From a virus (taxonomy: Duplodnaviria > Heunggongvirae > Uroviricota > Caudoviricetes): a stretch of DNA of 24,270 bases. How positions within the stretch are numbered: position 1 is the first letter of the stretch; each line of letters opens with the position of its first letter. Below, piece after piece: positions 2,435 through 20,502 of this stretch. The notes beneath the pieces are model-generated. The model had not been told where the DNA came from. It made no database searches and saw only the letters and a list, made by a program, of their open reading frames with translations. The position numbers and the translations under genes were made by a program. Location: the IMG/VR virus record IMGVR_UViG_2541047718_000009. One strand, written 5' to 3'.

Positions 2435-3510
2435 ACGATAACGTCACGCTACGGGTAAATGACCGGGAGTGGAATGGCTGGACATCGGTGCGCATCGGTG
2501 CCGGTGTTGAACGACTGGCGCGGGATTTCAGTGTGGAGATCACCCGCCAGTGGCCGGGAAATGAGGGTATTACCACGCTTCAGCCGCGCATTAAAAACGG
2601 TTCAAAAGTGGAAGTGCTGATTGGTGATGAGCTGGTGATCACCGGCTGGGTGGAGGCGACGCCCGTTCGTTACGATGCCCGTTCGGTCAGCACCGGTATT
2701 GCCGGACGTAGTCTGACCGCTGACCTGATTGACTGTGCAGCCGAACCGACACAGTTTAACGGACGATCGCTGGTACAGATTGCGCAGGCGCTTGCTGCGC
2801 CTTTCGGCATTGAGGTGGTGAACAGCGGTGCGCCGTCGGGTGTTATTCCTGATGTCCAGCCTGATCACGGTGAAACGGTGATTGAGGTGATCAACAAAAT
2901 ACTCGGTCAGCAGCAGGCGCTGGCTTACGACGACCCGCACGGCAGGCTGGTGATTGGCGGTATTGGCTCAACGCGTGCACATACCGCGCTGGTACTTGGG
3001 GAAAACATCCTTTCCTGTGATACGGAGAAGAGTATCCGGGAGCGGTTTTCTGTTTACCAGGTAGCGGGGCAGCGTGCCGGAAACGACGATGATTTCGGTG
3101 AGGCCACTACCACCGCGCTGCGGGCACGCACAGAGGACGCATTTATTGCCCGTTACCGTCCGATGTATATCAGGCAGACAGGGCAGGCCACGGGGGCTGG
3201 CTGTATTGCGCGTGCTGACTTTGAAGCCCGGCAACGGGCGGCGCGGACGGATGAAACCACCTATGTGGTGCAGGGCTGGCGACAGGGTAACGGTACGCTG
3301 TGGCAGCCCAACCAGCGGGTGATTGTCTTCGATCCGGTCTGTGGTTTCGACAATACCGAACTGCTTGTTTCGGAAGTCACGTTTACTCAGGACCAGAACG
3401 GCACCCTGACGGAAATCCGTGTCGGCCCGCCTGATGCTTATCTGCCTGAACCCGAAGCTCCCGGCGCGCGGAAAAAGAAAAAAGCCAGAGTACAGGAGGA
3501 CCCGTTCTGA
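2431..3510 (+). CDS. tail/baseplate hub protein (Mu gp44/P, phage late control D family)
   Basis: 359-aa product in the conserved position after the DNA circulation gene. Its start overlaps the upstream stop (ATGA), indicating translational coupling. Sequence is family-like by recall (NDNVTLRVNDREWNGWTSVRIG...). Confidence 0.7.
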   Translation: MNDNVTLRVNDREWNGWTSVRIGAGVERLARDFSVEITRQWPGNEGITTLQPRIKNGSKVEVLIGDELVITGWVEATPVRYDARSVSTGIAGRSLTADLIDCAAEPTQFNGRSLVQIAQALAAPFGIEVVNSGAPSGVIPDVQPDHGETVIEVINKILGQQQALAYDDPHGRLVIGGIGSTRAHTALVLGENILSCDTEKSIRERFSVYQVAGQRAGNDDDFGEATTTALRARTEDAFIARYRPMYIRQTGQATGAGCIARADFEARQRAARTDETTYVVQGWRQGNGTLWQPNQRVIVFDPVCGFDNTELLVSEVTFTQDQNGTLTEIRVGPPDAYLPEPEAPGARKKKKARVQEDPF

Positions 3511-4058
3511 TGAGGGCGATTGAAGCCATGCAGCGACAACTCCTCGGCCTGATTGGGCGGGCCGTGGTGAAAAGCATCAGTGCCGCCACGAAATGTCAGA
3601 CCGTGGATGTGTCCCTGATTGCCGGTGAACCCAAAGCCGGGGTTGAACATCTTGAACCCTACGGTTTTACCGCAAGGGCAAACAGCGGTGCGGAAGCGGT
3701 GGTGTTGTTTCCGGATGGCGACCGTTCTCATGCGGTGGTTGTTACGGTGTCGGACCGGCGCTACCGCCTGAAAGGGCTGCAGACGGGTGAGGTGGCTGTC
3801 TATGACGATCAGGGGCAGTCTGTGATGCTGACCCGGGAGGGGATCGTGGTGGACGGTGCAGGTAAAACGATCACGTTTCGCAATGCGCCCAGAGCACGTT
3901 TTGAAATGGACCTTGAAGTGACCGGACAGGTGAAAGACCTGTGCGACTCCGGCGGCACTACCATGTCAGCGATGCGGCTTGCCTATAACGGGCATCGTCA
4001 CAGAGAGAACGGTCAGGGCAGTAACACCGACAAACCTGATAAAGCGATGGAGGCATGA
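3510..4058 (+). CDS. baseplate assembly protein V (spike; Mu gp45-like)
   Basis: 182-aa product of gpV-like size and sequence style (MRAIEAMQRQLLGLIGRAVV...). Overlapping TGATG start-stop with the upstream gene. Confidence 0.75.
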   Translation: MRAIEAMQRQLLGLIGRAVVKSISAATKCQTVDVSLIAGEPKAGVEHLEPYGFTARANSGAEAVVLFPDGDRSHAVVVTVSDRRYRLKGLQTGEVAVYDDQGQSVMLTREGIVVDGAGKTITFRNAPRARFEMDLEVTGQVKDLCDSGGTTMSAMRLAYNGHRHRENGQGSNTDKPDKAMEA

Positions 4059-4483
4059 TGGAACTGTGGCTGACGGTGAACGGTAAACGCACCTGCGCCA
4101 GCGCACCGCTGGATCCGCTGACCCGCGCCGTGGTGATTTCCCTGTTTACCTGGCGGCGGGCGGAGCCTGATGACAACGCCGACGTCCCGATGGGATGGTG
4201 GGGGGATACCTGGCCTGCGGTACAGAATGACCGTTACGGCTCCCGACTGTGGCTGCTTCAGCGCAGCAAACTGACCAATCAGCTGGTGCAGACGGTAAGG
4301 GGGTATATCCGCGAATGCCTGCAATGGATGATTGATGACGGCGTGGTGTCCCGTATTGATCTGGATATCCGCCGCACCGGGATTAATGAACTGGGTAACA
4401 GTATCACTCTCTGGCGTCGTGACGGACCGGTAATGATTTCTTTTGATGATCTGTGGAGTGCGATAACGCATGGCGGACAGTGA
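4055..4483 (+). CDS. baseplate protein (Mu gp46 / GP25-W-like)
   Basis: 142-aa product in the conserved position between V-like and J-like genes. The start may be ATG 4058, which has better spacing to GGAGG at 4049-4053. Confidence 0.7.
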   Translation: MMELWLTVNGKRTCASAPLDPLTRAVVISLFTWRRAEPDDNADVPMGWWGDTWPAVQNDRYGSRLWLLQRSKLTNQLVQTVRGYIRECLQWMIDDGVVSRIDLDIRRTGINELGNSITLWRRDGPVMISFDDLWSAITHGGQ

Positions 4484-5528
4484 ATTTCAGCGCCCGACGC
4501 TGGCAGAAAATATCAGTATGCTCCGTAACGATTTATTCGCCAGGCTGGACGTCAGCGACACGCTCCGGCGCATGGATGAAGACGTGCGGGCAAAGGTGTA
4601 TGCGGCAGCGCTGCATACGGTTTACGGGTACATCGATTATCTGGCAATGAATATGCTGCCTGACCTGTGCGATGAGTCCTGGCTGGCGCGACATGCTGCG
4701 ATGAAACGGTGTCCGCGCAAGGGGGCCACGGCTGCCAGCGGGTATATGCGCTGGGAAGGTGTCAGCGATGGCCTGAAGGTGACTGCCGGGAGCGTGATTC
4801 AGCGCGATGACCTGGTTCAGTACACGGCAACTGCCGATGCAACCAGCGCCGGTGGTGTCCTGCGTGTGCCGATCACTTGCTCAACTACAGGCGCGGTCGG
4901 TAACGCTGACGACGGTACGGCATTAATCCTGGTCACGCCGGTGAATGGTCTGCCGTCTTCCGGTGTTGCAGATACCCTGACTGGCGGATTCGATACTGAA
5001 GATCTGGAAACGTGGCGCGCCCGCGTCATTGAGCGGTATTACTGGACGCCGCAGGGCGGGGCTGACGGGGACTATGTCGTCTGGGCTAAAGAAGTGCCCG
5101 GCATTACCCGCGCATGGACATACCGTCACTGGATGGGAACGGGAACTGTCGGTGTGATGATTGCCAGCAGTGACCTGATTAATCCCATTCCGGAAGAATC
5201 AACGGAAACGGCGGCAAGACAACATATCGAGCCACTGGCCCCGGTGGCAGGCTCTGATTTGTATGTGTTCAGGCCGGTGGCACATACGGTGGATTTTCAT
5301 ATCCGTGTGACGCCGGACACACCGGAAATACGGGCTGCCATCACCGCCGAGTTGCGTTCGTTCCTGCTGCGTGATGGTTATCCGCAGGGAGAACTGAAGG
5401 TGTCGCGTATCAGTGAAGCGATTTCCGGTGCGAACGGGGAATACAGCCATCAGTTGCTTGCACCAGCGGACAATATCTCCATTGCAAAAAATGAGCTGGC
5501 AGTTCTGGGGACGATTTCATGGACGTGA
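4470..5528 (+). CDS. baseplate J-like protein (Mu gp47-like)
   Basis: 352-aa product in the conserved order; overlaps the upstream gene by 14 nt. Confidence 0.75.
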
Positions 5529-6103
5529 CAAACGATGATTACATCCGTCTGTTGTCGGCGCTGCTGCCGCCCGGTCCGGCGTGGTCAGCCAGCGATCCGG
5601 CGATTGCCGGTGCGGCACCGTCATTAACTCGTGTTCATCAGCGTGCGGATGCCCTGATGCGGGAGCTGGATCCGCGCACCACCACCGAACTGATAAATCG
5701 CTGGGAGCGTCTGTGCGGCCTGCCGGATGAATGTATTCCCGCAGGGACACAGACCCTTCGCCAGCGTCAGCAACGGCTGGATGCGAAGGTTAACCTGGCG
5801 GGTGGCATCAACGAGGATTTTTATCTTGCACAGCTTGCTGCCCTGGGCAGACCAGATGCCACCATCACGCGATACGACAAAAGCACGTTCACCTGCTCAT
5901 CGGCCTGTACTGACGCGGTGAATGCGCCGGAATGGCGGTATTACTGGCAGGTCAACATGCCAACCACCACCAACACCACCTGGATGACATGTGGCGATCC
6001 CTGTGATTCCGCACTGCGTATCTGGGGTGACACCGTTGTCGAGTGTGTGCTTAACAAACTCTGCCCGTCGCATACCTACGTAATTTTTAAATATCCGGAG
6101 TAA
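5519..6103 (+). CDS. tail protein, DUF2313 / YmfQ / Mu gp48-like
   Basis: 194-aa product ([27 protein letters not shown]...) in the position directly upstream of the tail fiber gene; overlaps the J-like gene end. Confidence 0.7.
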
Positions 6104-6106
6104 TCC

Positions 6107-7057
6107 ATGCATCGTATAGACACGAAAACCGCGCAGAAGGATAAGTTCGGCGCGGGTAAGAACGGTTTTACCCGTGGTAACCCCCAGACCGGCACACCTG
6201 CCACCGATTTGGATGATGACTACTTTGACATGTTGCAGGAAGAACTTTGCAGCGTGGTGGAGGCCTCCGGTGCCAGCCTGGAGAAGGAGCGGCACGACCA
6301 GTTGCTTACCGCGCTTCGTGCGCTGCTGTTAAGCCGCAAGAATCCGTTTGGTGATATCAAATCGGACGGCACGGTGAAAACGGCTCTCGAAAATCTTGGT
6401 TTGGGAGATGGCTCCGGGAGGCTTATACAGTGTCAGGTGTTTAAAAGCTCAGGTACATACACTCCGACAAAAGGCACAAGATTTATTATTGTTGAAATTG
6501 TTGGTGGTGGTGGGGCCGGTGGTGGTTGTCAGGTCGGTTATCCCAATAATGCTGCTTGTGGTGGCGGGGGGATGTCTGGGGAGTATGTTAAAGCTCGCGT
6601 GGATAATCCAACCGTAACTACTGTGACAATAGGATATGGTGGCACTGGTGCAAGTGCGTCGGTTGGTGCTCCCGGGGGAGCAACCTCTTTCGGCAATACC
6701 ATAATTGCCAAAGGTGGTCTTGGTGGGAATGTTCTTGCTGAAGGCACTGCTCCTGGGGTTGTTGGTCCGTATGGAGCATATACTGAGCCGGGATTTACAG
6801 GTGCCAATATTATCGGGTCTGGAAGCGGTTATAGCTCACCAGGCGTTCGGTATTCCGGCAGTCTGGCGATGGGGGGGCCTGGCGGCGATTCAATCCTTGG
6901 TGCGGGGGCTGGGTCACAAGCCATTGTAGGCGAAGGTATTAATGCTAATGGCCATGGTGGTGGAGGCGGTGGTGCCTGTGTCTACGGTGGAGCGACGCAG
7001 CAGCGTGCCGGAGGTAGCGGAATGGCTGGTATTGCAATCATTTGGGAGTATGCGTGA
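6107..7057 (+). CDS. tail fiber protein: conserved N-terminal anchor region plus glycine-rich C-terminal distal domain
   Basis: ATG 6107 with GGAG 6 nt upstream. The N-terminal ~95 aa ([40 protein letters not shown]...) resemble prophage side-tail-fiber N-termini. The C-terminal two thirds are Gly-rich (GGGGAGGG..., HGGGGGGA) and the coding DNA becomes visibly more AT-rich from about 6400. Confidence 0.8.
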
Positions 7058-7452
7058 TGAACTATGCCGTTATAGAAAATGGTGTTGTTACCAATATTGC
7101 TGTATGGGATGGTGAGAGTGCCTGGCAACCAACTAATGCGTTAGTTATACCTGTATCCGATAATGTAAGAATTGGTTGGTTCTATGATAAGGGAAAGCTT
7201 TCGTCACCTACGCAGCCGCCAAAAACACATGATGAATTACTTCGTGAGGCAGAGAATGAAAGACAGTGTCTGCTGGATAGTGCTAATAGTTTAATTATGA
7301 ACTGGCAGTCAGATTTGTTACTCGGTATTATAAGTGAAAATAACAAGGGCAATCTTTTATTATGGAAGGAATATGTTAATAGTTTAATGTCAGTGGATTT
7401 ATCTTTAGTGCCAGAAATAACCTGGCCTGAAAGGCCAGAGATAATACGTTGA
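7057..7452 (+). CDS. tail fiber assembly chaperone (Tfa)
   Basis: ATGA overlap with the fiber stop at 7055-7057. The product [25 protein letters not shown]... has the typical Tfa N-terminus and size. The ORF track begins 5 codons earlier at 7042. Confidence 0.75.
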   Translation: MNYAVIENGVVTNIAVWDGESAWQPTNALVIPVSDNVRIGWFYDKGKLSSPTQPPKTHDELLREAENERQCLLDSANSLIMNWQSDLLLGIISENNKGNLLLWKEYVNSLMSVDLSLVPEITWPERPEIIR

Positions 7453-7493: not shown

Positions 7494-8519
7494 TTAGGAT
7501 GTGATTATTTTTCTGATTTTATCGTTCTTCTCCAGAAAGTGATAAGATAATGATGCCATTGCAGTATTAATAACAAAAAGTACAAGCCAGCTAAAAAGAC
7601 CATAGTTAAGAACAAATGAATTTTTATTATGATCAAGGTAATATAATATAGGTAATTGCATCAAATAAAACGAATAACTTATATCTCCAAAGTAAATGAT
7701 CGCTCTGTTTACAATATTGTTTTTGATGTTGATTTTTGCCAGGTGCAATAACATAATTGATATCGCAGGAATTGTGAGATAGTTCACCCCCATGGAGTTA
7801 TTGTTTTGCTGGGTGGTAGCATACAGAAATAATAAAATGCTTAATAGCCATGTATAATGGTTAACACGATAGCCATTTAAAAAAAGTATTGCGATACAGA
7901 CGCCCACCACAAATTCTGGTAACCTGTATATTGGAGTTGCGTAATATACGGACCAAACTACAGGTCCCTGAATTATATCAGATAATGGGATTAATAATGC
8001 TGAAGATAAATATGAAAAAAGTAAAACATAAATTACATTGTTTTTGTTGATGTTTTTTATCAAAAATGGAAATAGGGCATAAAAAAACAATTCCACTGAT
8101 ATTGACCAGGTACCGCTAAAATTCCAAAAATCGAAGGTCTGATAAATCCATGATTGCATTCCAGTAACAAACAAGAATATGCTTGCAATCATTTTTAAAA
8201 AGTTTGCATCGCTGGATAACAAAAATGGGAGGGTTAAAAGCCCACAAAATAAATAGGCTGGAAATATTCTTGCTATTCGCTTCCTGAAGTAATTGTTTGA
8301 CAAGGAACCATAGTAATTATAAGTCAAAACAAAACCAGAAAGCATGAAGAAAATACTCATGCCAATGACGCCATTGCTAATGGTTTTATTAATAAGCTCT
8401 CCAAAATTAACGGGGACTCTCATGTTAATGTGAAAAATAAACACATAAAAAGCAGCTATAAATCTTAAGATTGTTACTCCATCCATTTTTTTTCTTGTTA
8501 TGTTATTGGTACTAGTCAT
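7494..8519 (-). CDS. acyltransferase family 3 integral membrane protein (putative O-antigen / surface polysaccharide O-acetyltransferase)
   Basis: 341-aa very hydrophobic product with the family signatures: N-terminal R..H (GVTILRFIAAFYVFIFH), FFMLSGF and W-S-I-S-V-E-L-F-F-Y. The gene is strongly AT-rich relative to the flanking tail genes. Confidence 0.8.
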   Translation of the reverse strand: MTSTNNITRKKMDGVTILRFIAAFYVFIFHINMRVPVNFGELINKTISNGVIGMSIFFMLSGFVLTYNYYGSLSNNYFRKRIARIFPAYLFCGLLTLPFLLSSDANFLKMIASIFLFVTGMQSWIYQTFDFWNFSGTWSISVELFFYALFPFLIKNINKNNVIYVLLFSYLSSALLIPLSDIIQGPVVWSVYYATPIYRLPEFVVGVCIAILFLNGYRVNHYTWLLSILLFLYATTQQNNNSMGVNYLTIPAISIMLLHLAKINIKNNIVNRAIIYFGDISYSFYLMQLPILYYLDHNKNSFVLNYGLFSWLVLFVINTAMASLSYHFLEKNDKIRKIITS

Positions 8520-8715: not shown

Positions 8716-8858
8716 GGCTCCGTCCAAAATTTACCCCTGAATAATGGGTGTAGGCCAGGCGATTAATTGCATCAGGCGTTCCTCGCCAGAAGGTGGCGAT
8801 CATCTATGATGTTGGTATATCGACACTGTATAAGAAGTTTCCGGTCGGAGATAAATGA
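8716..8858 (+). pseudogene. remnant of a Gin/Pin/Hin-family serine DNA invertase (C-terminal HTH only; frameshifted, catalytic domain absent)
   Basis: The frame ending at TGA 8856-8858 reads ARRLIASGVPRQKVAIIYDVGISTLYKKFPVGDK, closely matching the C-terminal DNA-binding end of Gin/Pin-type invertases as I recall them (...QVALIYDVALSTLYKK...). An upstream GG-rich stretch (about 8730-8750) is recognisable only across frameshifts, and no N-terminal catalytic domain is encoded in 8520-8715. Confidence 0.65.
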
Positions 8859-8918
8859 AACCGTAGCACGTCGTATGCAAGAAGATCGTGCTGCGGTTTA
8901 TGCTTATCACTTAAAGAC

Positions 8919-9788
<870 letters not shown>

Positions 9789-10094
9789 CTAATCCTTTGA
9801 ATTTACATAGTAAAAAAAGATACTTTTCCTCATAGTGTGAATTAATTTTATGTTTCGTTTGATGATTGGACCGGTCTCGAAAACCGTAGGCACGTAGTAT
9901 GCGTTAATTTATGAGCAAACTACTTGTCTGCTGTTTTTCTGTCATTAGTCGTATATAGAATGATTCTCTATGCCTAACAAAGCATCACTAGTGCTAGATT
10001 ACGTTGTAGTCACTGTTTAAATATCCAGACAAAACATTTCCTTCTGGGTTGAATGAGTGATAGAGTTTCACCCATTAGACCCCTTGGAGGAATT

Positions 10095-11528
10095 ATGTCT
10101 GAATTTGAAGTGTTGGCACAGCATCTGCTGAAGGAAGCCGAGGCGGAAGAAAAGCTGCGACAGGAAAATGATAAAAAGCTTATCGAGAAAGTGCTGGAAA
10201 TCTATGATCAGAAGTATGTGGCTGAATTACTGAGAAAAGTCGGAAAAAATGAGTGGAGCCGTGAAACCATTAACCGCTGGATTAATGGCAAGTGTTTACC
10301 AAAATCGTTGACGTCAGTAGAAGAGTCTCTTCTGCGTAAGATGCTACCAGAACCACCTGCAAACCATCCGGAATATGCTTTCCGCTTCATTGACTTATTT
10401 GCTGGAATTGGAGGGATACGAAAAGGTTTTGAGGCTATTGGAGGCCAGTGTGTTTTTACCAGTGAATGGAATAAAGATGCTGTGCGTACATACAAGGCCA
10501 ACTGGTTTAACGATGAACAGGTGCATAAATTCAATCTCGATATTCGGGAAGTCACGTTGAGTGATAAAACCGATGTATTGGAAACGGATGCTTATGCATA
10601 TATTGATGAGCATGTGCCGGATCATGATGTGCTTCTTGCGGGGTTCCCGTGCCAGCCATTTAGTCTTGCTGGTGTTAGTAAGAAAAACTCACTTGGCCGT
10701 GCGCATGGTTTTGAATGTGAAGCACAAGGAACACTTTTTTTTGACGTGGCACGTATTATACGAGCAAAAAAACCGGCAATTTTTGTGCTGGAAAATGTCA
10801 AAAATCTGAAGAGCCATGATAAGGGTAAAACTTTCAAAGTCATTATGGAGACCCTTGACGAGCTGGGCTACGAAGTTGCCGATGCTGCAGAAATGGGAAA
10901 AAACGATCCAAAGATTATCGATGGGAAGCATTTTTTGCCTCAGCATCGTGAACGCATTGTTCTGGTCGGATTTAGACGAGATCTGAATATTCACAAGGGG
11001 TTTACCTTGCGTGATATCAGTCGTTTTTATCCGGAACACCGCCCATCATTTGGTGAATTGCTGGAGCCTGTAGTCGACAGTAAATATATACTTACGCCAA
11101 AACTATGGGAGTACCTTTATAACTACGCCAAAAAGCATGCAGCCAAGGGGAATGGTTTTGGCTTTGGGTTGGTCAATCCTGAGAATAAGGAAAGCATTGC
11201 ACGCACACTTTCTGCCAGATATCACAAAGACGGATCAGAAATTCTTATTGATCGTGGTTGGGATATGGCAACGGGAGAGGCTGACTTTATGAATGAGAGT
11301 AATCAGGCTCGTCGACCACGCAGGCTGACTCCCCGAGAGTGCGCACGCCTTATGGGATTTGAAAAACCTGGAGGGAAACCATTCCGTATTCCGGTTTCAG
11401 ATACTCAGTCATATCGGCAGTTCGGTAACTCAGTTGTGGTGCCAGTATTTGAAGCTGTTGCCAGACTTCTGGAACCCTATATCCTCAAAGCTGTTTCTGC
11501 TGATGCTGGTAAGACTGGGCAGCCTTGA
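10095..11528 (+). CDS. DNA (cytosine-5) methyltransferase, Dcm / M.EcoRII-like
   Basis: C5-MTase motifs are present: [12 protein letters not shown] (motif I), [11 protein letters not shown] (motif IV, catalytic Cys), ENVKNL (motif VI), [10 protein letters not shown] (motif X). ATG 10095 is preceded by GGAGG at 10086-10090, giving a 477-aa product; the ORF track start at 10053 lacks an RBS. Confidence 0.9.
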
Positions 11529-11534
11529 GAACAC

Positions 11535-11557
11535 CTCCCGGCCTTTTAAGCCGGGAG
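11535..11557. terminator. hairpin between convergent methyltransferase and restriction genes
   Basis: CTCCCGGC (11535-11542), loop CTTTTAA, GCCGGGAG (11550-11557). Confidence 0.4.
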
Positions 11558-11562
11558 TCAGC

Positions 11563-12777
11563 CTATGATAGTTCAGCGTAAAGCTCTATCAGCTCAGTAA
11601 TGAATGCTCCGAGCGTTATTAATTCTTCTCTAACTGCTTCTGGGTATTTTTTATGTAAAGTTGATGGTACAACGAGTCTGACACCCGCATCTTTCATTTC
11701 TCGGTATTGTGCTGAAGAAACACCTTCTTGCAGTGTAAATAAATGTACCTGATGGATTTTATCTGCTTCATTCAGTATCTGACGCCAGCGATCTTTGCAG
11801 GTGGTCTTTACTGCCAGCATACGTAAGTTTTCTACAGGAAATTCAACGTTATGATATGCCTCTGCTGAAGGAAACAGGAAATCTGGTTTTTTATTACCTT
11901 CAGTAACTGCCTGAGTGGAGAAATGCCGTAGTCCGTGCTCGATAAAAAGCTTCTCTAGGTGAAGTTCAAGTGATTTGCCTGCCCTTGATTTACGTCGATT
12001 ACTGACAGAGTTGGCTAATGCAATAAACTCATCTACAGAATCGAATCCTTTCTTAATAATATCAAGAACATGTAATTCCTCGACGAGTAGAAAAATATCA
12101 TACTCGACACGCCGACGGTCAATCAGTTGCTCATCTGGATCCTTGGAGTTTTTAGCATAATGGCCAGCAGCATATTGAATAATTTCGTTTCCAGAAGGAA
12201 AACGCTTCTTCCAGTCTTCAGGAATAACATATTTATGATTTACTGGAGTTTGCTGAAGAGATAATCCGCCCAAAATTTGTCCGGCAGGGCCGGAAATTAG
12301 GGTTCCAGGTATGATTTCGCCAATAGCAGACTCGATGATATCCTCTTCATCGGGATTGACGCAGACCCATATATCTACCTCGGAACAGTCAGTGTTCTGT
12401 TCGTTTAACCTGAAAGCAAGAATTGTGAGAGCTCCTGTATTTTCAGGGTTCTGTAATGGACTTCCTCTCCCCCAGCGCGTAATTCTTTTTTCGTTTCGGG
12501 TCTTACCAAAATAACGGTTGTTGTAATAAATTGCGCGTGCTTGGGTATCAGGGCAATCATGGGATGATACATGCGCAGTAAGGAAGACTGAAGGGTTCAG
12601 TTCGCGAGTATGATTGATAGATGGAAAAAGCTTTTCAACGATATTTGAGGGGATATAAAGTCCGACCTGATGGCCACCTGTTGCGCCAGTGTCGTTTGCA
12701 GAAAGGCGTTTGATGTAGATAAAGTAATTCCCGCTTGCGATATCAAGCAGCCAGTTATGAAAAACCGACATATACAT
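11563..12777 (-). CDS. type II restriction endonuclease, EcoRII family (CCWGG-type)
   Basis: 404-aa product whose N-terminus (MSVFHNWLL..YIKRLSANDTGATGGHQVGLYIPS) matches my recollection of R.EcoRII. It is convergent with a Dcm/M.EcoRII-like methylase. Family assignment is by recall, not a search. Confidence 0.7.
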   Translation of the reverse strand: MYMSVFHNWLLDIASGNYFIYIKRLSANDTGATGGHQVGLYIPSNIVEKLFPSINHTRELNPSVFLTAHVSSHDCPDTQARAIYYNNRYFGKTRNEKRITRWGRGSPLQNPENTGALTILAFRLNEQNTDCSEVDIWVCVNPDEEDIIESAIGEIIPGTLISGPAGQILGGLSLQQTPVNHKYVIPEDWKKRFPSGNEIIQYAAGHYAKNSKDPDEQLIDRRRVEYDIFLLVEELHVLDIIKKGFDSVDEFIALANSVSNRRKSRAGKSLELHLEKLFIEHGLRHFSTQAVTEGNKKPDFLFPSAEAYHNVEFPVENLRMLAVKTTCKDRWRQILNEADKIHQVHLFTLQEGVSSAQYREMKDAGVRLVVPSTLHKKYPEAVREELITLGAFITELIELYAELS

Positions 12778-12858
12778 CCCTTTGTTAGCATACAGTCAGG
12801 GTTAACATTTTTCCATAGTTATAGATAAGCGGCTAGGAACTTAAGGGAAAAACAAAAA

Positions 12859-12880
12859 GCCCGCATAAGCGGGCTTTTGT
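12859..12880. terminator. bidirectional rho-independent terminator candidate
   Basis: GCCCGC (12859-12864), loop ATAA, GCGGGC (12869-12874), followed by TTTTGTG on the + strand and preceded by AAAAA (a U-tract on the - strand). A second perfect 14-nt palindrome GGAGCCGCGGCTCC follows at about 12889-12902. Confidence 0.5.
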
Positions 12881-13005
12881 GTCACTCGGGAGCCGCGGCT
12901 CCTTTGCGTATCCTTTTTTGTCTCCTCACCGTCTGGTCGGTGTCCTGCTGAGACTGCTAACTTCCTGTTTTTGTTGGTGTTGTCCTTACACCGTCCAATC
13001 ATGAT

Positions 13006-13028
13006 TGGTGGAGCTGGCGGAGTTTGAA
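13006..13028. repeat. distal att site of the P4-like element (direct repeat of the ssrA 3' end)
   Basis: TGGTGGAGCTGGCGG at 13006-13020 is identical to 23869-23883 (complement of the tmRNA 3' terminus ...CCGCCAGCUCCACCA), with AGTTTGAA versus GAGTTGAA continuing the similarity. A 14-nt perfect palindrome CCAATCATGATTGG overlaps its left edge (12995-13008). Confidence 0.7.
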
Positions 13029-13162
13029 TAAATATTGTATTGCTTTGATTTTTAATGATTTTATTTAATTTAGTTTTTGTGCGTATACTTAATCGTATAC
13101 CAATGGCTGTAAGTTAATGTGAAATGAAAGCGCATTTTTACTTGGATTGATGCTATATCGTA

Positions 13163-13468
13163 CAGGAAAAAAATTTTTTTTCGAAAGAACTGTTCACACT
13201 GTTCACCTTTCTTTTTTCTCCTTTTATTTCAGAGTGATAGGTGGTGAATAATGGGTGAAGGGTGAACATTCGATTCTTCACCTCCGGCATTCTGCCGGTG
13301 TGACTCATACCGGTGATTAATCCCCCGTACTGAAATCACTCAGGAAGAAAAAAGTTTTTTTTGATTTGATTGTTCACACTGTTCACCTTTCGTTTTTCTC
13401 TTTTAATTTCAGTATGATAACGGGTGAATATACGGTGAAGGGTGAACACTGGATTGTTCACCTTCGGG
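13163..13468. repeat. crr-like cis replication region: two ~125-bp direct repeats carrying TGTTCACC / GGTGAACA iterons
   Basis: Unit 1 is about 13163-13286 and unit 2 about 13343-13468, period 180 bp. Exact octamers TGTTCACC occur at 13200-13207, 13380-13387 and 13455-13462, and GGTGAACA at 13261-13268 and 13441-13448, with further one-mismatch variants. Located immediately 3' of the alpha gene, as in P4. Confidence 0.75.
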
Positions 13469-13480
13469 GGATGTCGGGAT

Positions 13481-13506
13481 AAAAAAAAGACCGGCAGATG
13501 CCGGTC
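13481..13506 (-). terminator. rho-independent terminator after alpha
   Basis: On the minus strand: hairpin GACCGGCATCTGCCGGTC (13489-13506) followed by eight U (13481-13488), 8 nt after the alpha stop codon. Confidence 0.7.
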
Positions 13507-13513
13507 AGGTGGG

Positions 13514-15847
13514 TCAGGTTGTTGCAGGGGCGTCACATTTTGGCAGCCAGTCGCCGTAGCTTTCCTCTTTCAGCGTCAGGTTGGTCTGTATCCCCTGTTT
13601 GGTATGGCGCTTCTCGTAATTCAGCCCGTATTCTTTCAGCATCACCGGTAGCCCCAGTCCGAACATTTTCAGACTGAGTACATTCCGGTAGCCGTTTGCC
13701 TCCATGTAGGCCAGATAGGCGTGATAGAGGTATTTACGGTAATTACGCGGGATGATACTGGCGTTCCCCATATACATGCCGCTGGTCTGCGGCAGGGTTT
13801 CCAGATAGCCGATAAAATCAAACGTCGGGTCGGCATCCCGTTTGATGTTCAGTGCCTCGTCTGAGTTCTGCTGGGACTGAAGCAGTGACCGGGCGAGCAT
13901 CGGGTCGCTGAACTTCTGCATCAGGTGACGCACGATGACCGCCAGCTCGCGGGTGATTTTGTCCTTAAGCTGCGGGTCGCGCTCCTGCGGGGCTATCTGT
14001 TCCGGGAAGTGAATAATCACCCGCCGGCGTGACACGCCGCCGCTGCGGTCGGTGAAGCGCATCGGGTTATTGTTCACGGCCAGAATCACCGCCGGGATGT
14101 GCGTGGAGTACGCATCCCGGTATTTCGGGTCAACGGACACTGCATCGCCGCCGGTGATGGCCTTGAGTCCGGCTCCGTCGCCGCTCCATTTTTCCTGGTC
14201 CGGCAGGCGTATCAGTGAGAAGCCAGTTAACGCGGCACGTTCACGCGGGGATTCCAGCGTCTCAATGGTGGCCGACGTGGCGTTATCCTCACCGGCCAGC
14301 AGGGTGGCTATTTCGGCCATGATACTTTTGCCGCTGCCGCCGGGACCGGTCACCTCCAGAAAGAGCTGCCAGTCGTAGCGGTTTGCCAGCACCATAAACA
14401 GTGCGGCCAGAATCACGTCGCGTTTTTCCGCACGACCACCGGCAGCACGGTCAAGCCAGCGCCAGAACGCGGGAGCGTGGGTTTCCAGCGTTTCACCGTC
14501 CACCGGCGGGGTGAAATCCACATCACACAGGGTACGCATCCAGTGTGACGGACTGTGCGGGTGGAACGTACCGTTCTGCGTGTCGAGCACGCCGTTACGA
14601 AAGCCAATCAGGCGGCGGGAGGGGGCTTCCTGCTGCGGAATAATCAGCTTCAGGGTGTCCACCACGGAGGCCACCTTCCCGGAGGAGAACGGCGCGCGCA
14701 GACGCTGAAACAGCCCGGCCACATCCCGGGCAAAGTCCTGTGGCGGCAGCACCTTCCAGACACCATTTTCATAGCGGGACAGAAGCTGGCCGTTGGCATC
14801 GACCGCGAGCGCCTCGCCGTAATGCTCATAGATACGCATGGCCTTTTCGCTGGTACTCATGGCGGAAAACTCCGCTTCGCTCATGGTGTCGAACGGGCTT
14901 TCAGCCGGTGGCCGGATGGCATCATAAATGGCCTTACGGGTGGCTTCCCCGCCGTACTGCGTGAAGGCATCATTCCAGTCACCGAAGACCGGCGGCAGGG
15001 CAACAACACCTTCACACGCATCTGCGGCTGCGGCGGCTTTTTTCTGGCCGTCACCGCTGAGGTCACGGTCAGCAGCAAGGACAATCTGACAGGCCGGATG
15101 CTTCTGCCGGGCAAGGCTGGACAGAGAAAGGAGATTCACGGAAGAAAGCGCCACCATCACCGTTTCACCGGTCAGGTGATGCACGGTAAGTGCGGTCGCG
15201 TATCCCTCCGCTATCCACAGACGTTTTCCGGCCTGATTCTGTCCTTCAAGGGTGTGACAGGTGCCCCTGACCTGTCCGCCTTTCAGGGTGCGCTTACGGC
15301 CGTCAGCACTGATTAACTGAAGGTTAACCAGTTCGCCGCTGTCGTCATACAGTGGCACCACAAGGTCACCAGCACGCCAGCTCACGCCACCGGCTCTGTG
15401 TGTGCCGGTCAGCATCCGGCATTCCCGGCCGGGAAAGCCCTTGCGGGTCAGGTAGGCGTTACCGGTTCCGGGACGGGTTTTCGCTATCAGGGTTTGTGCC
15501 AGTGCGGCGGCGTTCTTCCGGGCAGCGTCTGTTTCAGCACCGGCGGCGGCCGTCACTGCCGGGTCAGCCGGGGGCAGGCTGCCGGTCACGGCAGCCACCT
15601 TTGCGGCCGCGTCGGACGGGGAGACACCAAACACCTTTTCAACCAGTTTCAGGCCGTCACCGGCACCACACTGATTGCAGTACCAGGTGCCGCGCCCCTC
15701 CCTGTCATCAAAACGGAAGCGGTCACTCCCGCCACAGACCGGACAGGGCTGATGACGGTTTTTCAGCACCTGAATCCCCAGCGCCGGGAGAATACGCGGC
15801 CAGTGGCCGAGCGCATGGCTGACGGTGGCGGTTACGTTCATTTTCAT
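13514..15847 (-). CDS. alpha: P4 alpha-type primase-helicase (replication initiator)
   Basis: 777-aa product with an N-terminal zinc-binding CPVCGG...CNQCG motif and a primase/D5-type helicase arrangement; I recall P4 alpha as about the same length. AAGGAG lies 9 nt upstream of ATG 15847. Flanked by iteron regions. Confidence 0.85.
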   Translation of the reverse strand: MKMNVTATVSHALGHWPRILPALGIQVLKNRHQPCPVCGGSDRFRFDDREGRGTWYCNQCGAGDGLKLVEKVFGVSPSDAAAKVAAVTGSLPPADPAVTAAAGAETDAARKNAAALAQTLIAKTRPGTGNAYLTRKGFPGRECRMLTGTHRAGGVSWRAGDLVVPLYDDSGELVNLQLISADGRKRTLKGGQVRGTCHTLEGQNQAGKRLWIAEGYATALTVHHLTGETVMVALSSVNLLSLSSLARQKHPACQIVLAADRDLSGDGQKKAAAAADACEGVVALPPVFGDWNDAFTQYGGEATRKAIYDAIRPPAESPFDTMSEAEFSAMSTSEKAMRIYEHYGEALAVDANGQLLSRYENGVWKVLPPQDFARDVAGLFQRLRAPFSSGKVASVVDTLKLIIPQQEAPSRRLIGFRNGVLDTQNGTFHPHSPSHWMRTLCDVDFTPPVDGETLETHAPAFWRWLDRAAGGRAEKRDVILAALFMVLANRYDWQLFLEVTGPGGSGKSIMAEIATLLAGEDNATSATIETLESPRERAALTGFSLIRLPDQEKWSGDGAGLKAITGGDAVSVDPKYRDAYSTHIPAVILAVNNNPMRFTDRSGGVSRRRVIIHFPEQIAPQERDPQLKDKITRELAVIVRHLMQKFSDPMLARSLLQSQQNSDEALNIKRDADPTFDFIGYLETLPQTSGMYMGNASIIPRNYRKYLYHAYLAYMEANGYRNVLSLKMFGLGLPVMLKEYGLNYEKRHTKQGIQTNLTLKEESYGDWLPKCDAPATT

Positions 15848-15861
15848 GGTGTTGTTCTCCT

Positions 15862-16182
15862 TCAGTGCAGTACCGGCGCTTTTATGTGACGGGCACAGAG
15901 TTCATCCATCACAACCAGCCCGAGAAAGGACAGCGACGGCGCGGCCTTCAGGGGGCCGGATTCCATTAAATCTTCCAGCAGGGCACAGGCTATCTGACGC
16001 CCTTTTTCCTCACCGTGCTGGCGCAGATAAAAGCCTTCCAGCTCAGCGGCGATGGCCGCCTCCAGTGATTCAAGGGTGAGATGCGGGTAGCGGTGCTGAC
16101 GTTCGCACACGGTCAGCCAGGCACAGGCGACAGCACGACGGTAAAGGGCTGCGCGTAAGACGGGCGGTAAGGGTGTTTTCAT
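15862..16182 (-). CDS. hypothetical protein of the P4-like left operon (106 aa)
   Basis: GGAGG 6 nt upstream of ATG 16182; stop lies 14 nt before the alpha start. Function unknown. Confidence 0.6.
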
Positions 16183-16317
16183 TTGCTTTCCTCCCTGTGA
16201 CAGATGACTGCATTCCGTGCCGGTTGCATTAACTGATAAGGCATATCTGCGTCTCCTGAAGACGTGCGTATCCCTGCGCGAATACGCACATTTAATTTTT
16301 CGGGTGTCGTTTTTTAA

Positions 16318-16773
16318 TTACAGATAATTGCGGTAACTGTTATCCGGGGTGGTTTCCGGGTCAGGCTCCGTGCGGGGAATTTCCCGCCATTCCCGCGCCA
16401 CCGGTGCCGCCCGGCTGACCGGAACAGGGGCCTGCGGGTAAATATCCAGATATTTCTCCCGCCATTTCTGTAATTCCGGGTCTCCGGCCATTTCTTTCAG
16501 TACCGCATGCCGGTTTACGGGGCTGCGTTTAAACAGGTCAGGACGGTCACAGGTAAATTCCCGCAGAAAACGCCCCAGCGGGATGTCTGTGGTGCGCCCG
16601 TCAGCGAGGATACGCACAAGGATACTGAATTTACGGCGGTACGGGTTCCAGACAATGTCCGGGCAGCGGTACGGCATTTCCCACGGAATACCGTCTTCCA
16701 GAATGCCGACCACGGCCACATCGGGAAAACCGGCAGAACGGTAAATCTCACCGGGCTGGGGAAAATCAAACAT
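16318..16773 (-). CDS. hypothetical protein of the P4-like left operon (151 aa; P4 orf151-like by position and size)
   Basis: GGGGAG RBS upstream of ATG 16773; overlaps the stop of the upstream small gene. Confidence 0.6.
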   Translation of the reverse strand: MFDFPQPGEIYRSAGFPDVAVVGILEDGIPWEMPYRCPDIVWNPYRRKFSILVRILADGRTTDIPLGRFLREFTCDRPDLFKRSPVNRHAVLKEMAGDPELQKWREKYLDIYPQAPVPVSRAAPVAREWREIPRTEPDPETTPDNSYRNYL

Positions 16774-17053
16774 GCGTCCTGTCTCCCCGGTCTTTCTGCT
16801 GGGCGAGAAAATCGCGGCACAGGCCTTTGGCTTTCAGCTCATTCAGCACAAAATCAATATCTTCATTCAGGTAGCTGAAAATATGCGGAATGTAGAGCTG
16901 ATGCAGGCCGGAGAGTTCACGGTGAATCAAATCCCCCCCAACAAACTGGGATACGGCGCTGGCGCGGTTGAGCTTATGGTAAGCCTCAATGCTGAGGTGT
17001 TCACGGGCGTCATGACGTGCTGAGACGGTCTGAGGGGCTTTTTTATTACGCAC
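16766..17053 (-). CDS. small left-operon protein (95 aa), possible epsilon-like derepressor (assigned by position only)
   Basis: GTG 17053 is preceded by GGAGG with 6-nt spacing. The longer ORF-track version (to 17209) adds a Cys/Pro-rich N-terminus without an RBS and is judged spurious. Confidence 0.4.
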
Positions 17054-17243
17054 GGGACACCTCCACCACCGGCAGACGGGCAGCAAGGGAGAGCACATAG
17101 TCACGGACAAGGGAACGGCGGGCACTGCGTTCATCACCGGCGACGGTGCGAAGCATACAGATACGGGGATGACGGTCTGCGCGACGGACAGCCGCAAACA
17201 CAAAGACAAATTCAGGGTGTGAAGGGGTAAGGGTTGTAGCCAT
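17046..17243 (-). CDS. small protein (65 aa), unknown function
   Basis: ATG 17243 is preceded by GGAGG at 8-nt spacing; its stop overlaps the start of the 95-aa gene, suggesting coupling. It is the C-terminal part of ORF-track entry 17046..17690, whose upstream portion lacks support. Confidence 0.4.
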
Positions 17244-17641
17244 GATGGCAGCCTCCGTTAGATAGCAGGTTACGCTATCGCCGGAGTTTCCACGCTCGAT
17301 GGCGATAGCCCAGACGGGGGTGGAAATACCGGCTCTAACGGATACCGGCCAGCCCGGAGGCTGCCCCGCCTGAGCTACCATTGACTCTGCGGCATAATGA
17401 GCGGACGCGGGCAGGATGCACGGAGTGCCATCTGCTCGACTGACCACACACCACACCATAATCTGGCGCTCTGTGGCGTTGATTGCGACACAAAAAAAGA
17501 CGCATGGCGCGTCATATGTCGCCGTTAGATTGCTCGGGTTTCCACGCCCGGCTGCCGATTTTGCGACAGCGGAAAAACTATATCCGCAAATGCCGGAAAA
17601 AGGCAAGCCAGAAAAAGGGACTTTTTGCAGAACAGGCATCA

Positions 17642-17908
17642 TCATGCGTCGTACCCCCGTTTGCGTCCGGCAATGCGTCCGGCCATCCATGCGGTGACTT
17701 CAGAGTGCAGCCAGGCCACATTTTTACCGCCAAGACTCACCTGCGGCGGAAATTCCCCCTTACGGATGAGTTCGTAGATGGTCGAGCGTGACAGGCCGCA
17801 CAGGTGCATCACTTCCGGCAGACGTAAAAAACGCTCCTGCGTGATGTCCGGCAGCGGCATCAGTGGCGTCACAGGGGCGGGAGACGGGGAAGAAAAAACA
17901 GCTTGCAT
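17642..17908 (-). CDS. vis: AlpA / P4 Vis-family small HTH regulator (excision and transcription control)
   Basis: 88-aa product with the AlpA-type signature [54 protein letters not shown] 7 nt upstream. First gene of the leftward operon next to ori. Confidence 0.75.
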
Positions 17909-18188
17909 CGGGCTACCTCGTTAATGTCCATACAGCACCGGATAAGTCCGTCCGGCTTCGGGTAGCGCTTTATTTTGTGAATATTTTCAGCAGACGCAAC
18001 AGGGGGGATTTGTTCCGGCAGCCTTACAATGGCTGTGCATTTTTTTGTACATCAGCGCCAGATAGCTTTAAAACGCTCTGGAAGGAGCTGGAAAAAATTA
18101 TAGTGAAATACAAATTGTTTTTTCTTATTTATTTCAGTGAATTAATAAAAATAAAAAGTAATAAACAGCACAAAAAGCCCATCAACGG

Positions 18189-18291
18189 GTGAACAGTGGT
18201 GAACAGACGGTGAACAGTCATTACTGCGATTGTTCACCCTTTAACTTACTGTATTACTTATCTTTTTTATTAAGGTGAACAGAGGTGAACA
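18189..18291. promoter_or_regulatory. P4-type origin of replication (ori): iteron cluster around an AT-rich spacer
   Basis: GGTGAACA at 18189-18196, 18198-18205, 18209-18216, 18274-18281 and 18284-18291; TGTTCACC at 18231-18238; AT-rich stretch at 18240-18273. About 4.9 kb from the crr repeats, consistent with my recollection of P4 ori-crr spacing of about 4.5 kb. Confidence 0.75.
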
Positions 18292-18370
18292 GTAAAATAT
18301 AAAAAAACAAACAGTAAGCCGGTTTTTCCTGCGACCTTTTCCTGGCTTGCCGGTCTGAGGATGAGTCTCC

Positions 18371-18388
18371 TGTGTCAGGGCTGGCACA
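18371..18388 (+). promoter_or_regulatory. late-promoter activator site (TGT-N12-ACA dyad) upstream of sid
   Basis: TGT (18371-18373), 12 nt, ACA (18386-18388), centred about 80 nt upstream of the sid ATG. This matches the Ogr/Delta-dependent late promoter architecture of P2/P4. Confidence 0.55.
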
Positions 18389-18460
18389 TCTGCAATGCGT
18401 CGTGTTGTTGTCCGGTGTACGTCACAATTTTCTTAACCTGAAGTGACGAGGAGCCGGAAA

Positions 18461-19195
18461 ATGTCTGACAACACCATCCCTGAATATCTGCAACCCGCAC
18501 TGGCACAACTGGAAAAGGCCAGAGTCGCTCATCTTGAGAACGCCCGCCTGATGGATGAGACCGTCACGGCCATTGAACGGGCAGAGCAGGAAAAAAATGC
18601 GCTGGCGCAGGCCGACGGAAACGACGCTGACGACTGGCGCACGGCCTTTCGTGCAGCCGGTGGTGTCCTGAGCGACGAGCTGAAACAGCGCCACATTGAG
18701 CGCGTGGCACGCCGGGAGCTGGTACAGGAATATGACAATCTGGCCGTGGTGCTGAATTTTGAACGCGAACGCCTGAAAGGGGCGTGTGACAGCACGGCCA
18801 CCGCCTACCGGAAGGCACATCATCACCTTCTGAGTCTGTATGCAGAGCATGAGCTGGAACACGCCCTGAATGAAACCTGTGAGGCGCTTGTCCGGGCAAT
18901 GCATCTGAGCATCCTGGTACAGGAAAATCCGCTCGCCAACACCACCGGCCATCAGGGCTACGTCGCGCCGGAAAAGGCTGTCATGCAGCAGGTGAAATCA
19001 TCGCTGGAACAGAAAATAAAACAGATGCAAATCAGCCTCACCGGCGAGCCGGTTCTCCGGCTGACCGGACTGTCAGCGGCAACACTCCCGCACATGGATT
19101 ATGAGGTGGCAGGCACACCGGCACAGCGCAAGGTGTGGCAGGACAAAATAGACCAGCAGGGAGCAGAGCTTAAGGCCAGAGGGCTGCTGTCATGA
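18461..19195 (+). CDS. sid: Sid, capsid size-determination external scaffold protein
   Basis: 244-aa product from ATG 18461 (GAGGAG 7 nt upstream), MSDNTIPEYLQPALAQLEKA..., which I recognise as P4 Sid. The ORF track begins 6 codons earlier. Confidence 0.85.
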   Translation: MSDNTIPEYLQPALAQLEKARVAHLENARLMDETVTAIERAEQEKNALAQADGNDADDWRTAFRAAGGVLSDELKQRHIERVARRELVQEYDNLAVVLNFERERLKGACDSTATAYRKAHHHLLSLYAEHELEHALNETCEALVRAMHLSILVQENPLANTTGHQGYVAPEKAVMQQVKSSLEQKIKQMQISLTGEPVLRLTGLSAATLPHMDYEVAGTPAQRKVWQDKIDQQGAELKARGLLS

Positions 19196-19692
19196 TTTAC
19201 TGTCCGTCGTGTGGACATGTTGCTCACACCCGTCGCGCACATTTCATGGACGATGGCACCAAGATAATGATTGCACAGTGCCGGAATATTTATTGCTCTG
19301 CGACATTTGAAGCGAGTGAAAGCTTTTTCTCTGACTGTAAAGATTCAGGAATGGAATACATTTCAGGCAAACAGAGATACCGCGATTCACTGACGTCAGC
19401 CTCCGGCAGTATGAAACGCCCGAAAAGAATGCTTGTTACCGGATATTGTTGTCGGAGATGTAAAGGCCTTGCACTGTCAAGAACATCGCGGCGTCTGTCT
19501 CAGGAAGTCACCGAGCGTTTTTATGTGTGCACGGATCCGGGCTGTGGTCTGGTGTTTAAAACGCTTCAGACCATCAACCGCTTCATTGTCCGCCCGGTCA
19601 CGCCGGACGAACTGGCAGAACGCCTGCATGAAAAACAGGAACTGCCGCCAGTACGCTTAAAAACACAATCATATTCGCTGCGTCTGGAATGA
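19192..19692 (+). CDS. delta: Delta, Ogr-family zinc-finger late transcription activator (tandem Ogr-like halves)
   Basis: 166-aa product with two CxxC...C...C units (MIYCPSCGHVAHTRR...CRNIYCSATF and ...CRRCKG...CTDPGCGLVF). ATGA overlap with the sid stop. Confidence 0.85.
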   Translation: MIYCPSCGHVAHTRRAHFMDDGTKIMIAQCRNIYCSATFEASESFFSDCKDSGMEYISGKQRYRDSLTSASGSMKRPKRMLVTGYCCRRCKGLALSRTSRRLSQEVTERFYVCTDPGCGLVFKTLQTINRFIVRPVTPDELAERLHEKQELPPVRLKTQSYSLRLE

Positions 19693-19765
19693 GGGCTGCC
19701 GGTTAACACCGGCCGTCGCCGCACACCGTATTTTTATTCTTCAGCATGATGAGAAAGAGATAACG

Positions 19766-20338
19766 ATGGAAAGCACAGCCTTACAGCAGGCCTTTGACAC
19801 CTGTCAGAATAACAAAGCGGCATGGCTGCAACGCAAAAATGAGCTGGCAGCGGCCGAACAGGAATATCTGCGGCTTCTGTCAGGAGAAGGCAGAAACGTC
19901 AGTCGCCTGGACGAATTACGCAATATTATCGAAGTCAGAAAATGGCAGGTGAATCAGGCCGCCGGTCGTTATATTCGTTCGCATGAAGCCGTTCAGCACA
20001 TCAGCATCCGCGACCGGCTGAATGATTTTATGCAGCAGCACGGCACAGCACTGGCGGCGGCACTGGCACCGGAGCTGATGGGCTACAGTGAGCTGACGGC
20101 CATTGCCCGAAACTGTGCCATACAGCGTGCCACAGATGCCCTGCGTGAAGCCCTTCTGTCCTGGCTTGCGAAGGGGGAAAAAATTAATTATTCCGCACAG
20201 GATAGCGACATTTTAACGACCATCGGATTCAGGCCTGACGCGGCTTCGGTGGATGACAGCCGTGAAAAATTCACTCCTGCGCAGAACATGATTTTTTCGC
20301 GTAAAAGTGCACAACTGGCATCACGTCAGTCTGTGTAA
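19766..20338 (+). CDS. psu: Psu, polarity suppression / capsid decoration protein
   Basis: 190-aa product in the third position of the sid-delta-psu operon, with size and sequence style of P4 Psu. Confidence 0.8.
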   Translation: MESTALQQAFDTCQNNKAAWLQRKNELAAAEQEYLRLLSGEGRNVSRLDELRNIIEVRKWQVNQAAGRYIRSHEAVQHISIRDRLNDFMQQHGTALAAALAPELMGYSELTAIARNCAIQRATDALREALLSWLAKGEKINYSAQDSDILTTIGFRPDAASVDDSREKFTPAQNMIFSRKSAQLASRQSV

Positions 20339-20374
20339 AATTCCCCGAAAATCCGCCCGTTTTTACTGAAAAAA

Positions 20375-20402
20375 GCCATGCATCGATAAGGTGCATGGCT
20401 TT
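20375..20402 (+). terminator. terminator hairpin after psu
   Basis: GCCATGCA (20375-20382), 9-nt loop, TGCATGGC (20392-20399), then TTT; lies 37 nt after the psu stop. Confidence 0.55.
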
Positions 20403-20502
20403 GCATGCGTTTTCCTGCCTCATTTTCTGCAGACCGCACCATTCCCGGCGCGGTCTGAGCGTGTCAGTGCAACTGCATTAAAACCGCCCCGCAAAGCGGG
20501 CG

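Follow-up and report, generated by a model that had tools for sequence, protein, structure and literature searches.

A predicted EcoRII-type restriction-modification pair carried by a prophage at ssrA in Escherichia coli

Introduction

The closest described relatives of the locus treated here are the EcoRII restriction-modification (R-M) system of IncN and other plasmids, with endonuclease structures in PDB entries 1NA6, 3HQF and 3HQG, and the chromosomal dcm-vsr genes of Escherichia coli K-12. CCWGG is the target of both M.EcoRII and K-12 Dcm. A tblastn search with the 1NA6 sequence finds the EcoRII prototype at 99% identity or more on 1662 PLSDB plasmids, mostly conjugative plasmids of Klebsiella, Escherichia and Enterobacter. 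The M.EcoRII protein is reported to have a fused repressor domain, and to repress its own gene, not that of the endonuclease, once the substrate sites are methylated (2025 EcoSal review, PMC12707154). Plasmid-borne EcoRII is described as causing post-segregational killing (PMC3874152), and Dcm as protecting cells from killing after EcoRII loss (Takahashi et al. 2002 as cited in PMC3874152 and PMC3424554). A recipient carrying EcoRII has been reported to restrict conjugating plasmids only when they come from dcm- donors (PMC11602122).

Here we describe a related gene pair in a 24,270-nt stretch of DNA from a virus of the Caudoviricetes (IMG/VR record IMGVR_UViG_2541047718_000009), in the following called the window, which is 100% identical to the chromosome of E. 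coli AR_0013 (NZ_CP032204.1). The pair consists of a C5 cytosine methyltransferase gene of the M.EcoRII/Dcm family (M, 10095–11528 on the + strand, WP_001288444.1) and a gene for a Type IIE endonuclease that is an ortholog of EcoRII (R, 11563–12771 on the – strand, 402 amino acids (aa), WP_000110239.1). From the comparisons below the locus is probably a functional Type IIE R-M system, an isospecific allele of EcoRII that would act as a phage-borne barrier to incoming DNA.

The organization is that of EcoRII, with the same gene order and convergence, proteins of 477 and 402/404 aa, a spacer of about 33–34 bp, the stem of a hairpin and no vsr, but the nucleotide sequences have diverged by about 20% with saturated synonymous sites, and the location is a phage or prophage at ssrA and not a plasmid. 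M shares its NCBIfam subfamily, the DNA_meth_N domain and the inferred CCWGG target with K-12 Dcm, whereas the pair differs from dcm-vsr in the lack of vsr, the presence of a paired endonuclease, its mobility and its low G+C content (43% vs about 51%). Like the genes of P2 and P4 hotspots and attP-side morons, the pair is located in a low-G+C variable region with a defence gene as neighbour, but the carrier is of an e14/SfV-like myovirus type and not P2 or P4.

Results and Discussion

The endonuclease

The longest open reading frame (ORF) of R starts at 12777 (404 aa) and has its stop codon at 11563–11565 on the – strand. A second ATG at 12771 is the start annotated in RefSeq, and has a better spacing to the Shine-Dalgarno sequence than the ATG at 12777. 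The protein matches two Pfam domains, both over their full length, namely EcoRII-N (PF09217, E = 4e-61, residues 18–165) and EcoRII-C (PF09019, E = 2e-71, residues 229–393), and it aligns with EcoRII in PDB 1NA6 over residues 1–403 without gaps (E = 3e-243). The identity to R.EcoRII of the IncN prototype, for which the pair of pKPC-349c was used, is 86.1% (348 of 404 residues), also ungapped. The catalytic domain is homologous to those of Ecl18kI, SsoII and PspGI as well, enzymes for CCNGG or CCWGG with a base-flipping mechanism, but with E about 1e-4 this similarity is marginal, and the EcoRII-N effector domain is absent from them.

The residues with a known function in EcoRII were taken from Golovenko et al. 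2009 (PMC2770665) and are all kept in R, 27 out of 27. The active site is described there as E271, D299, K324 and E337, the read-out of CC:GG as K328, D329, R330 and N260, the pocket for the flipped base as R222, E225, Y226, F229, R265 and A266, the base contacts of the effector domain as N28, H36, Q37, Y85, R94, E96 and R98, and the phosphate contacts as Y41, R81, K92, T93, T100 and R101 (PMC2770665). Each of these five sets is identical in R. The N-arm, residues 27–42, is identical to that of EcoRII in 16 of 16 positions, and at residue 88, which is A in 1NA6 and R in the plasmid EcoRII, the window protein has R88.

The methyltransferase

M is read from an ATG at 10095 to a TGA at 11528 and encodes 477 aa, with a GGAGG four bases 5' of the start codon. 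It matches Pfam DNA_methylase (PF00145, E = 5e-78) and DNA_meth_N (PF18284, E = 7e-27), and scores 927 bits with the Dcm subfamily model of NCBIfam, NF007772 'DNA cytosine methylase', which has a cut-off of 710. The catalytic motifs of C5 methyltransferases (FxGxG, PCQ, ENV, QxRxR and GNSV) are all present, the last one reading GNSVVVPV, together with the N-terminal DNA-binding (autorepressor) domain. M and the IncN M.EcoRII are identical in 431 of 477 residues (90.4%) without gaps, and only two substitutions fall between motifs VIII and IX, the interval with the target-recognition domain. K-12 Dcm is 66% identical to M, and likewise 66% identical to M.EcoRII.

With all 27 functional residues of R identical and the target-recognition region of M almost identical to that of M.EcoRII, CCWGG specificity of the pair is strongly implied. 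The ratio of nonsynonymous to synonymous substitutions (dN/dS, Nei-Gojobori) relative to the IncN genes is 0.033 for M and 0.053 for R, both computed at a near-saturated dS of 1.6–1.8, and these low values indicate strong purifying selection on both genes throughout their divergence.

A cassette with conserved putative control regions

M and R are convergent, with 34 bp between their stop codons. This spacer contains a hairpin (11535–11557, found by folding and by alignment of EcoRII modules) with the arms CTCCCGGC (11535–11542) and GCCGGGAG (11550–11557), forming a perfect G+C-rich stem of 8 bp with a loop of 7 nt. The folding energy for the + strand is -16.3 kcal/mol with a z-score of -2.6, and for the – strand -20.2 kcal/mol with a z-score of -2.4. 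The stem is kept in divergent EcoRII modules while the loop and the flanks vary.

DNA homology to the IncN module extends over 10013–12780, with 79.6% identity. For a closer view of the flanking regions the window was aligned with three plasmid modules, from IncN, IncF (Enterobacter ludwigii) and Morganella. In this four-way alignment, with modules that are about 80% identical overall, the leader of M (10013–10094 on the + strand, 82 bp) is near-invariant from exactly position 10013, and an inverted repeat in it, CCAGA-N13-TCTGG at 10025–10047, is invariant. We infer that this repeat is a candidate promoter/operator for an autorepressing N-terminal domain of M. The leader of R (12772–12832 on the – strand) is kept for about 55 nt upstream of the gene, to about 12832, with a -10-like element of the form T(A/C)TAAY followed by ATGRAAAAATG; in the window the -10-like element is TATAAC (12823–12818), and the Shine-Dalgarno sequence is AAGGGA. 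Since the leaders of both genes are conserved in four contexts, the R-M module can be regarded as a self-contained cassette of about 2.8 kb (about 10013–12832) with its own putative control regions.

The preliminary description of this DNA, made from the sequence and its ORFs, had proposed a Dcm-family methylase and an EcoRII-family endonuclease in convergent arrangement with a hairpin between them, and had recognized the N-terminus of the latter as that of R.EcoRII, with CCWGG as the implied specificity. All of this agrees with the domain matches, alignments, spacer and functional residues given above. It had also named a different specificity, assigned by alignment to REBASE, and disrupting mutations in R as possible refutations; the comparisons with EcoRII point to no other specificity, and no disrupting mutation was found in the full-length, ungapped gene.

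The carrier phage and the integration history

The left part of the window, 32–7452 on the + strand, is the remnant of a tail module, which according to the RefSeq annotation of the source genome encodes the 3' part of the tape measure protein, a DNA circularization protein, baseplate proteins, YmfQ, a tail fibre and a tail fibre assembly protein. The module is of the myovirus type, and its 3' two-thirds are kept. A complete relative is found in NZ_CP081704.1, a 43.7-kb circular E. coli record that was deposited as a plasmid but has the gene content of a complete phage genome, encoding portal, HK97 protease and capsid, sheath, tube, tape measure, baseplate, lysis proteins, Q, CI/Cro and an integrase. 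It is 97.4% identical to the window over 215–6409 and 98.4% over 8856–13011. Between the tail fibre assembly gene and attP/DinI/int it carries a cargo of an acyltransferase, a GIY-YIG protein and an M protein that are both identical to those of the window, and an R protein with two differences. The same four cargo proteins are located directly beside ssrA in E. coli IAI39, with no satellite; here the start of R lies 234 bp beyond the 3' end of ssrA, in the same orientation, and only the ssrA terminator intervenes (10028–10263 of the IAI39 stretch).

To the right of R in the window there is a phage attP arm (12851–13020 on the – strand) recognized by homology to the attP region of phage LLS, containing the ssrA terminator (12855–12878) and then a displaced 15-nt ssrA 3' end (13006–13020). 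The arm proper is 155 bp (12851–13005), the last 15 nt being the left direct repeat of a satellite prophage. This 15-bp repeat, TGGTGGAGCTGGCGG, corresponds to the ssrA 3' end and is found at 13006–13020 and 23869–23883, where it bounds a P4-like satellite of 10.85 kb; the R-M pair is outside. The integration target, the ssrA (tmRNA) gene, is at 23869–24231 on the – strand (Rfam RF00023, 295.8 bits). Because of the context in NZ_CP081704.1 and in IAI39, and because the satellite repeats exclude the pair, we assign the pair to the myovirus. The carrier is an e14/SfV-like, ssrA-integrating myovirus, with the pair between the tail-fibre genes and attP.

The history that follows from this is that the myovirus first entered at ssrA, its cargo end adjoining that gene, and that the satellite later inserted into the regenerated ssrA 3' end. 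The arrangement in AR_0013 is a tandem array at ssrA, with the satellite beside an older prophage. Everything upstream of the tape measure gene in the AR_0013 myovirus has been lost to IS3/IS629 insertion sequences (IS) and a group II intron (ltrA), as seen in 1–1045 of the window and 1–4431 of an accompanying stretch, and the carrier prophage, truncated inside its tape measure gene, cannot be viable as a phage in this strain. Read-through from ssrA may set the level of R, and may have been changed by the satellite insertion. In AR_0013 the satellite crr region and the terminator of the alpha gene are now upstream of R, instead of ssrA.

Vsr and the host Dcm

No vsr gene was found by tblastn with K-12 Vsr in the six frames of the window (best E = 2.2), in the complete phage NZ_CP081704.1 (best E = 0.79) or in the IncN EcoRII module (best E = 2.8). 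The lack of Vsr is therefore, as far as these three sequences tell, the normal and ancestral state of EcoRII modules and not peculiar to this locus. The neighbouring GIY-YIG gene was considered as a substitute for Vsr, and this was dropped as the gene is CMoRE/PD-T4-3 (see below).

The DNA of K-12 dcm-vsr has a match in 5368 of the 5426 complete E. coli genomes, and for 5359 the match covers at least 80% of the query. AR_0013 has one matching place when the R-M region alone is the query, and appending K-12 dcm-vsr to it gives a second one; therefore this host should have a dcm-vsr homologue. With nearly all E. coli, AR_0013 included, being Dcm+ and Vsr+, the genome would be protected in advance, and gain or loss of the prophage would thus be harmless. 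Given the protection by Dcm in the literature, M should be redundant for self-protection here and the pair should not form an effective addiction module. T:G mismatches from deamination of 5-methylcytosine (5mC) would be left to the host Vsr, and restriction would be limited to DNA that arrives unmethylated or under-methylated at CCWGG.

Several statements of the preliminary description can be judged from this. That the pair is prophage cargo is borne out, the prophage being the carrier myovirus, seen as an IS-truncated remnant at the left, and not the P4-like satellite at the right. The absence of vsr was correctly noted, but it had been set against chromosomal dcm as something special, and the proper comparison is EcoRII, of which the IncN module also lacks vsr. 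The proposal that repair of deaminated 5mC depends on the host Vsr fits the second matching place gained in AR_0013 with dcm-vsr. The same count agrees with the view of host Dcm as a redundant protective methylase, a role that is not new since it has already been demonstrated experimentally.

Proposed function and alternative explanations

From the EcoRII literature, M is expected to methylate the inner C of CCWGG, and would shut off its own promoter when the sites are methylated. R would be autoinhibited by its N-terminal domain, a B3-like effector domain, until a second unmethylated CCWGG is bound, whereupon the dimer of C-terminal PD-(D/E)XK domains would flip the central base pair and cut unmethylated sites, cleavage being blocked by 5mC at the inner C. 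The spacer hairpin would keep the convergent transcripts from colliding, and the prophage-borne pair would serve the lysogen against incoming DNA. Some observations weigh against this interpretation. Specificity and expression of this particular allele are predicted from sequence, and the dcm-vsr genes of AR_0013, putatively intact, are deduced from a match count. A promoter/terminator scan gave no convincing promoter and no consensus σ70 promoter for either gene. The -10-like hexamer of R is TATAAC, where the IncN prototype has TATAAT, and expression of R may therefore be weak. There is no T-run at the hairpin and the terminator scan made no call there, so that its terminator role is putative.

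The imperfect -10-like element would also fit an R gene that is inactive or unexpressed, with M as a de facto orphan that could for instance methylate phage progeny against plasmid EcoRII. The separation of R from its usual upstream neighbour ssrA in AR_0013 points the same way, and the many plasmids with the prototype are a hazard for under-methylated phage DNA. We consider this very unlikely, as R is full-length and ungapped with all functional residues kept and a dN/dS of 0.05, and the identical R protein is found on at least 1000 contigs, indicating that selection has kept R. A functional pair could have a related but different specificity, such as CCNGG (Ecl18kI/SsoII) or CCSGG, and host Dcm would then not be redundant. 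EcoRII-C, PspGI and Ecl18kI have a common fold, the discrimination between W and S is subtle, and R has weak matches to Ecl18kI and PspGI; nevertheless the readers of the central T:A (N28, Q37, Y85 and R98) and the flipped-base pocket are those of EcoRII, M differs from M.EcoRII at only two positions between motifs VIII and IX, and as M.EcoRII and Dcm both recognize CCWGG at 66% mutual identity, a change of target in a protein with 90% identity to M.EcoRII is highly improbable. That the pair is instead cargo of the adjacent P4-like satellite, placed in its defence hotspot, has next to no probability. P4-like satellites are known carriers of defence genes, and only about 390 bp separate the pair from the P4 crr region, but the pair is not enclosed by the 15-bp repeats at the satellite ends, it is present beside ssrA without a satellite in IAI39 and within a complete myovirus genome, and the psu-int slot of the satellite is taken by a helicase gene.

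Another question is what maintains the pair. It is a tight mobile cassette on plasmids and phages, and EcoRII on a plasmid is reported to kill post-segregationally (PMC3874152), so it might act as an addiction module that is kept by such killing. This is unlikely, since chromosomal Dcm is cited as abolishing the killing by EcoRII (Takahashi et al. 2002) and 99% of E. coli have dcm, as does AR_0013 by the matching-place test. In addition, the pair has remained intact in a carrier prophage that has decayed through truncation by IS elements. A more speculative idea, doubtful but with a slightly better chance of being right, is that the nearly universal presence of Dcm in its hosts is the very reason for the phage to keep a pair of the EcoRII type. 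A new lysogen would be protected from the start, so that R would need no delayed expression, and loss would be harmless; the pair could be a selective filter complementing CMoRE, directed at DNA that has replicated too fast or comes from dcm- sources, or it could methylate the progeny against plasmid EcoRII. A functional isospecific EcoRII allele serving as a barrier to incoming DNA remains the reading that we favour.

Neighbouring genes and the satellite

The four cargo genes (acyltransferase, GIY-YIG, M and R) form a block with a low G+C content of 31–46%. The gene next to M, at 8919–9692 on the – strand, encodes CMoRE/PD-T4-3, a GIY-YIG Type IV restriction enzyme (PADLOC PD-T4-3, E = 2e-140; PDB 9U75, E = 4e-172), and is about 98% identical to the CMoRE of E. 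coli O157:H7 in PDB 9U75, the RefSeq name being only 'LEM-3-like GIY-YIG domain-containing protein'. CMoRE is reported to degrade the 5-hydroxymethylcytosine (hmC) and glucosyl-hmC DNA of T-even phages, and to bind 5mC DNA weakly (PMC12923530). From these assignments the prophage would stack a barrier for unmodified DNA beside a barrier for hypermodified DNA. CMoRE and the R-M pair are found together in 244 E. coli genomes, and about 600 more have CMoRE but not the pair. In two CMoRE-only prophages the homology to the window ends at 9889–9902, past the pinE-CMoRE block (6046 and 6035 onward in the compared stretches). Beyond CMoRE, strain EP91B has the reverse transcriptase/endonuclease of retron Ec67, and an O157:H7 strain has an AraC regulator, IS fragments and an ABC-three-component system. 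The slot downstream of CMoRE thus looks like a variable cargo and defence slot, judged by two alternative occupants and by the left-hand boundary of homology.

The acyltransferase gene (7494–8519 on the – strand, Pfam Acyl_transf_3) is a moron of the acyltransferase-3 family by domain and composition, with 31% G+C, and is probably an O-antigen or surface-modifying moron. It is located between the tail fibre assembly gene and a pinE remnant; the acyltransferase in NZ_CP081704.1 is a different one in the same place.

The P4-like satellite (13021–23868), delimited by sequence matches and the direct repeats, is complete and contains crr, which is 97.7% identical to that of P4, the alpha primase gene (777 aa), the C4/isrK RNAs, delta, psu, a hotspot helicase gene and int. 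The helicase, a DEAD/DEAH protein of 602 aa (20657–22465 on the + strand, 35% G+C), is located between psu and int, which is the hotspot position in P4, and has only weak matches to the models of PbeA, a Type IV restriction helicase and RadD. It is a candidate for an uncharacterised single-gene defence system. The carrier phage has 93 CCWGG sites, where 84 would be expected from composition and 136 under a Markov model, and there is no clear avoidance. The satellite (13028–23860) has 8 CCWGG sites against about 21–23 expected by composition or Markov model, counts that are small, and CCSGG is less depleted, with 33 sites against 48 expected.

Elsewhere in AR_0013, at 3,440,000–3,453,500 beside phoQ, there is an island resembling a phage-inducible chromosomal island or satellite, with genes for an integrase, Icd-like proteins, primase, capsid, protease, portal, and small and large terminase. 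The AR_0013 genome appears to be rearranged relative to K-12, with phoPQ/icd and an unrelated island at the coordinates where dcm was sought.

Distribution and implications

Among the 5426 complete E. coli genomes, 261 have at least 80% of the stretch comprising the R-M pair and the attP arm. In a large protein collection, M and R as exact proteins each occur on at least 1000 contigs. In the part of the literature on EcoRII and prophages that was covered, mostly by title and abstract, no description of this phage-borne allele was found. This is a gap in description and not in concept, the locus being of an already known type. It is a divergent allele of the best-studied Type IIE system, RefSeq annotates it in generic terms, and cargo beside attP with further defence genes as neighbours is well documented in other phages and satellites.

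The locus should be labelled as an EcoRII isoschizomer pair (predicted CCWGG) and not as a generic 'type II restriction endonuclease'. About 4.5–5% of the complete E. coli genomes carry the redundant combination of Dcm and EcoRII, which may serve as background in studies of the 5mC methylome and of plasmid and phage host range. The prophage is also an example of how phages stack complementary defences by attP, in this case a Type II R-M system and an hmC-directed Type IV enzyme, in a species where dcm-vsr are core genes that neutralise EcoRII-type systems, both in their killing and in most of their role as a barrier.

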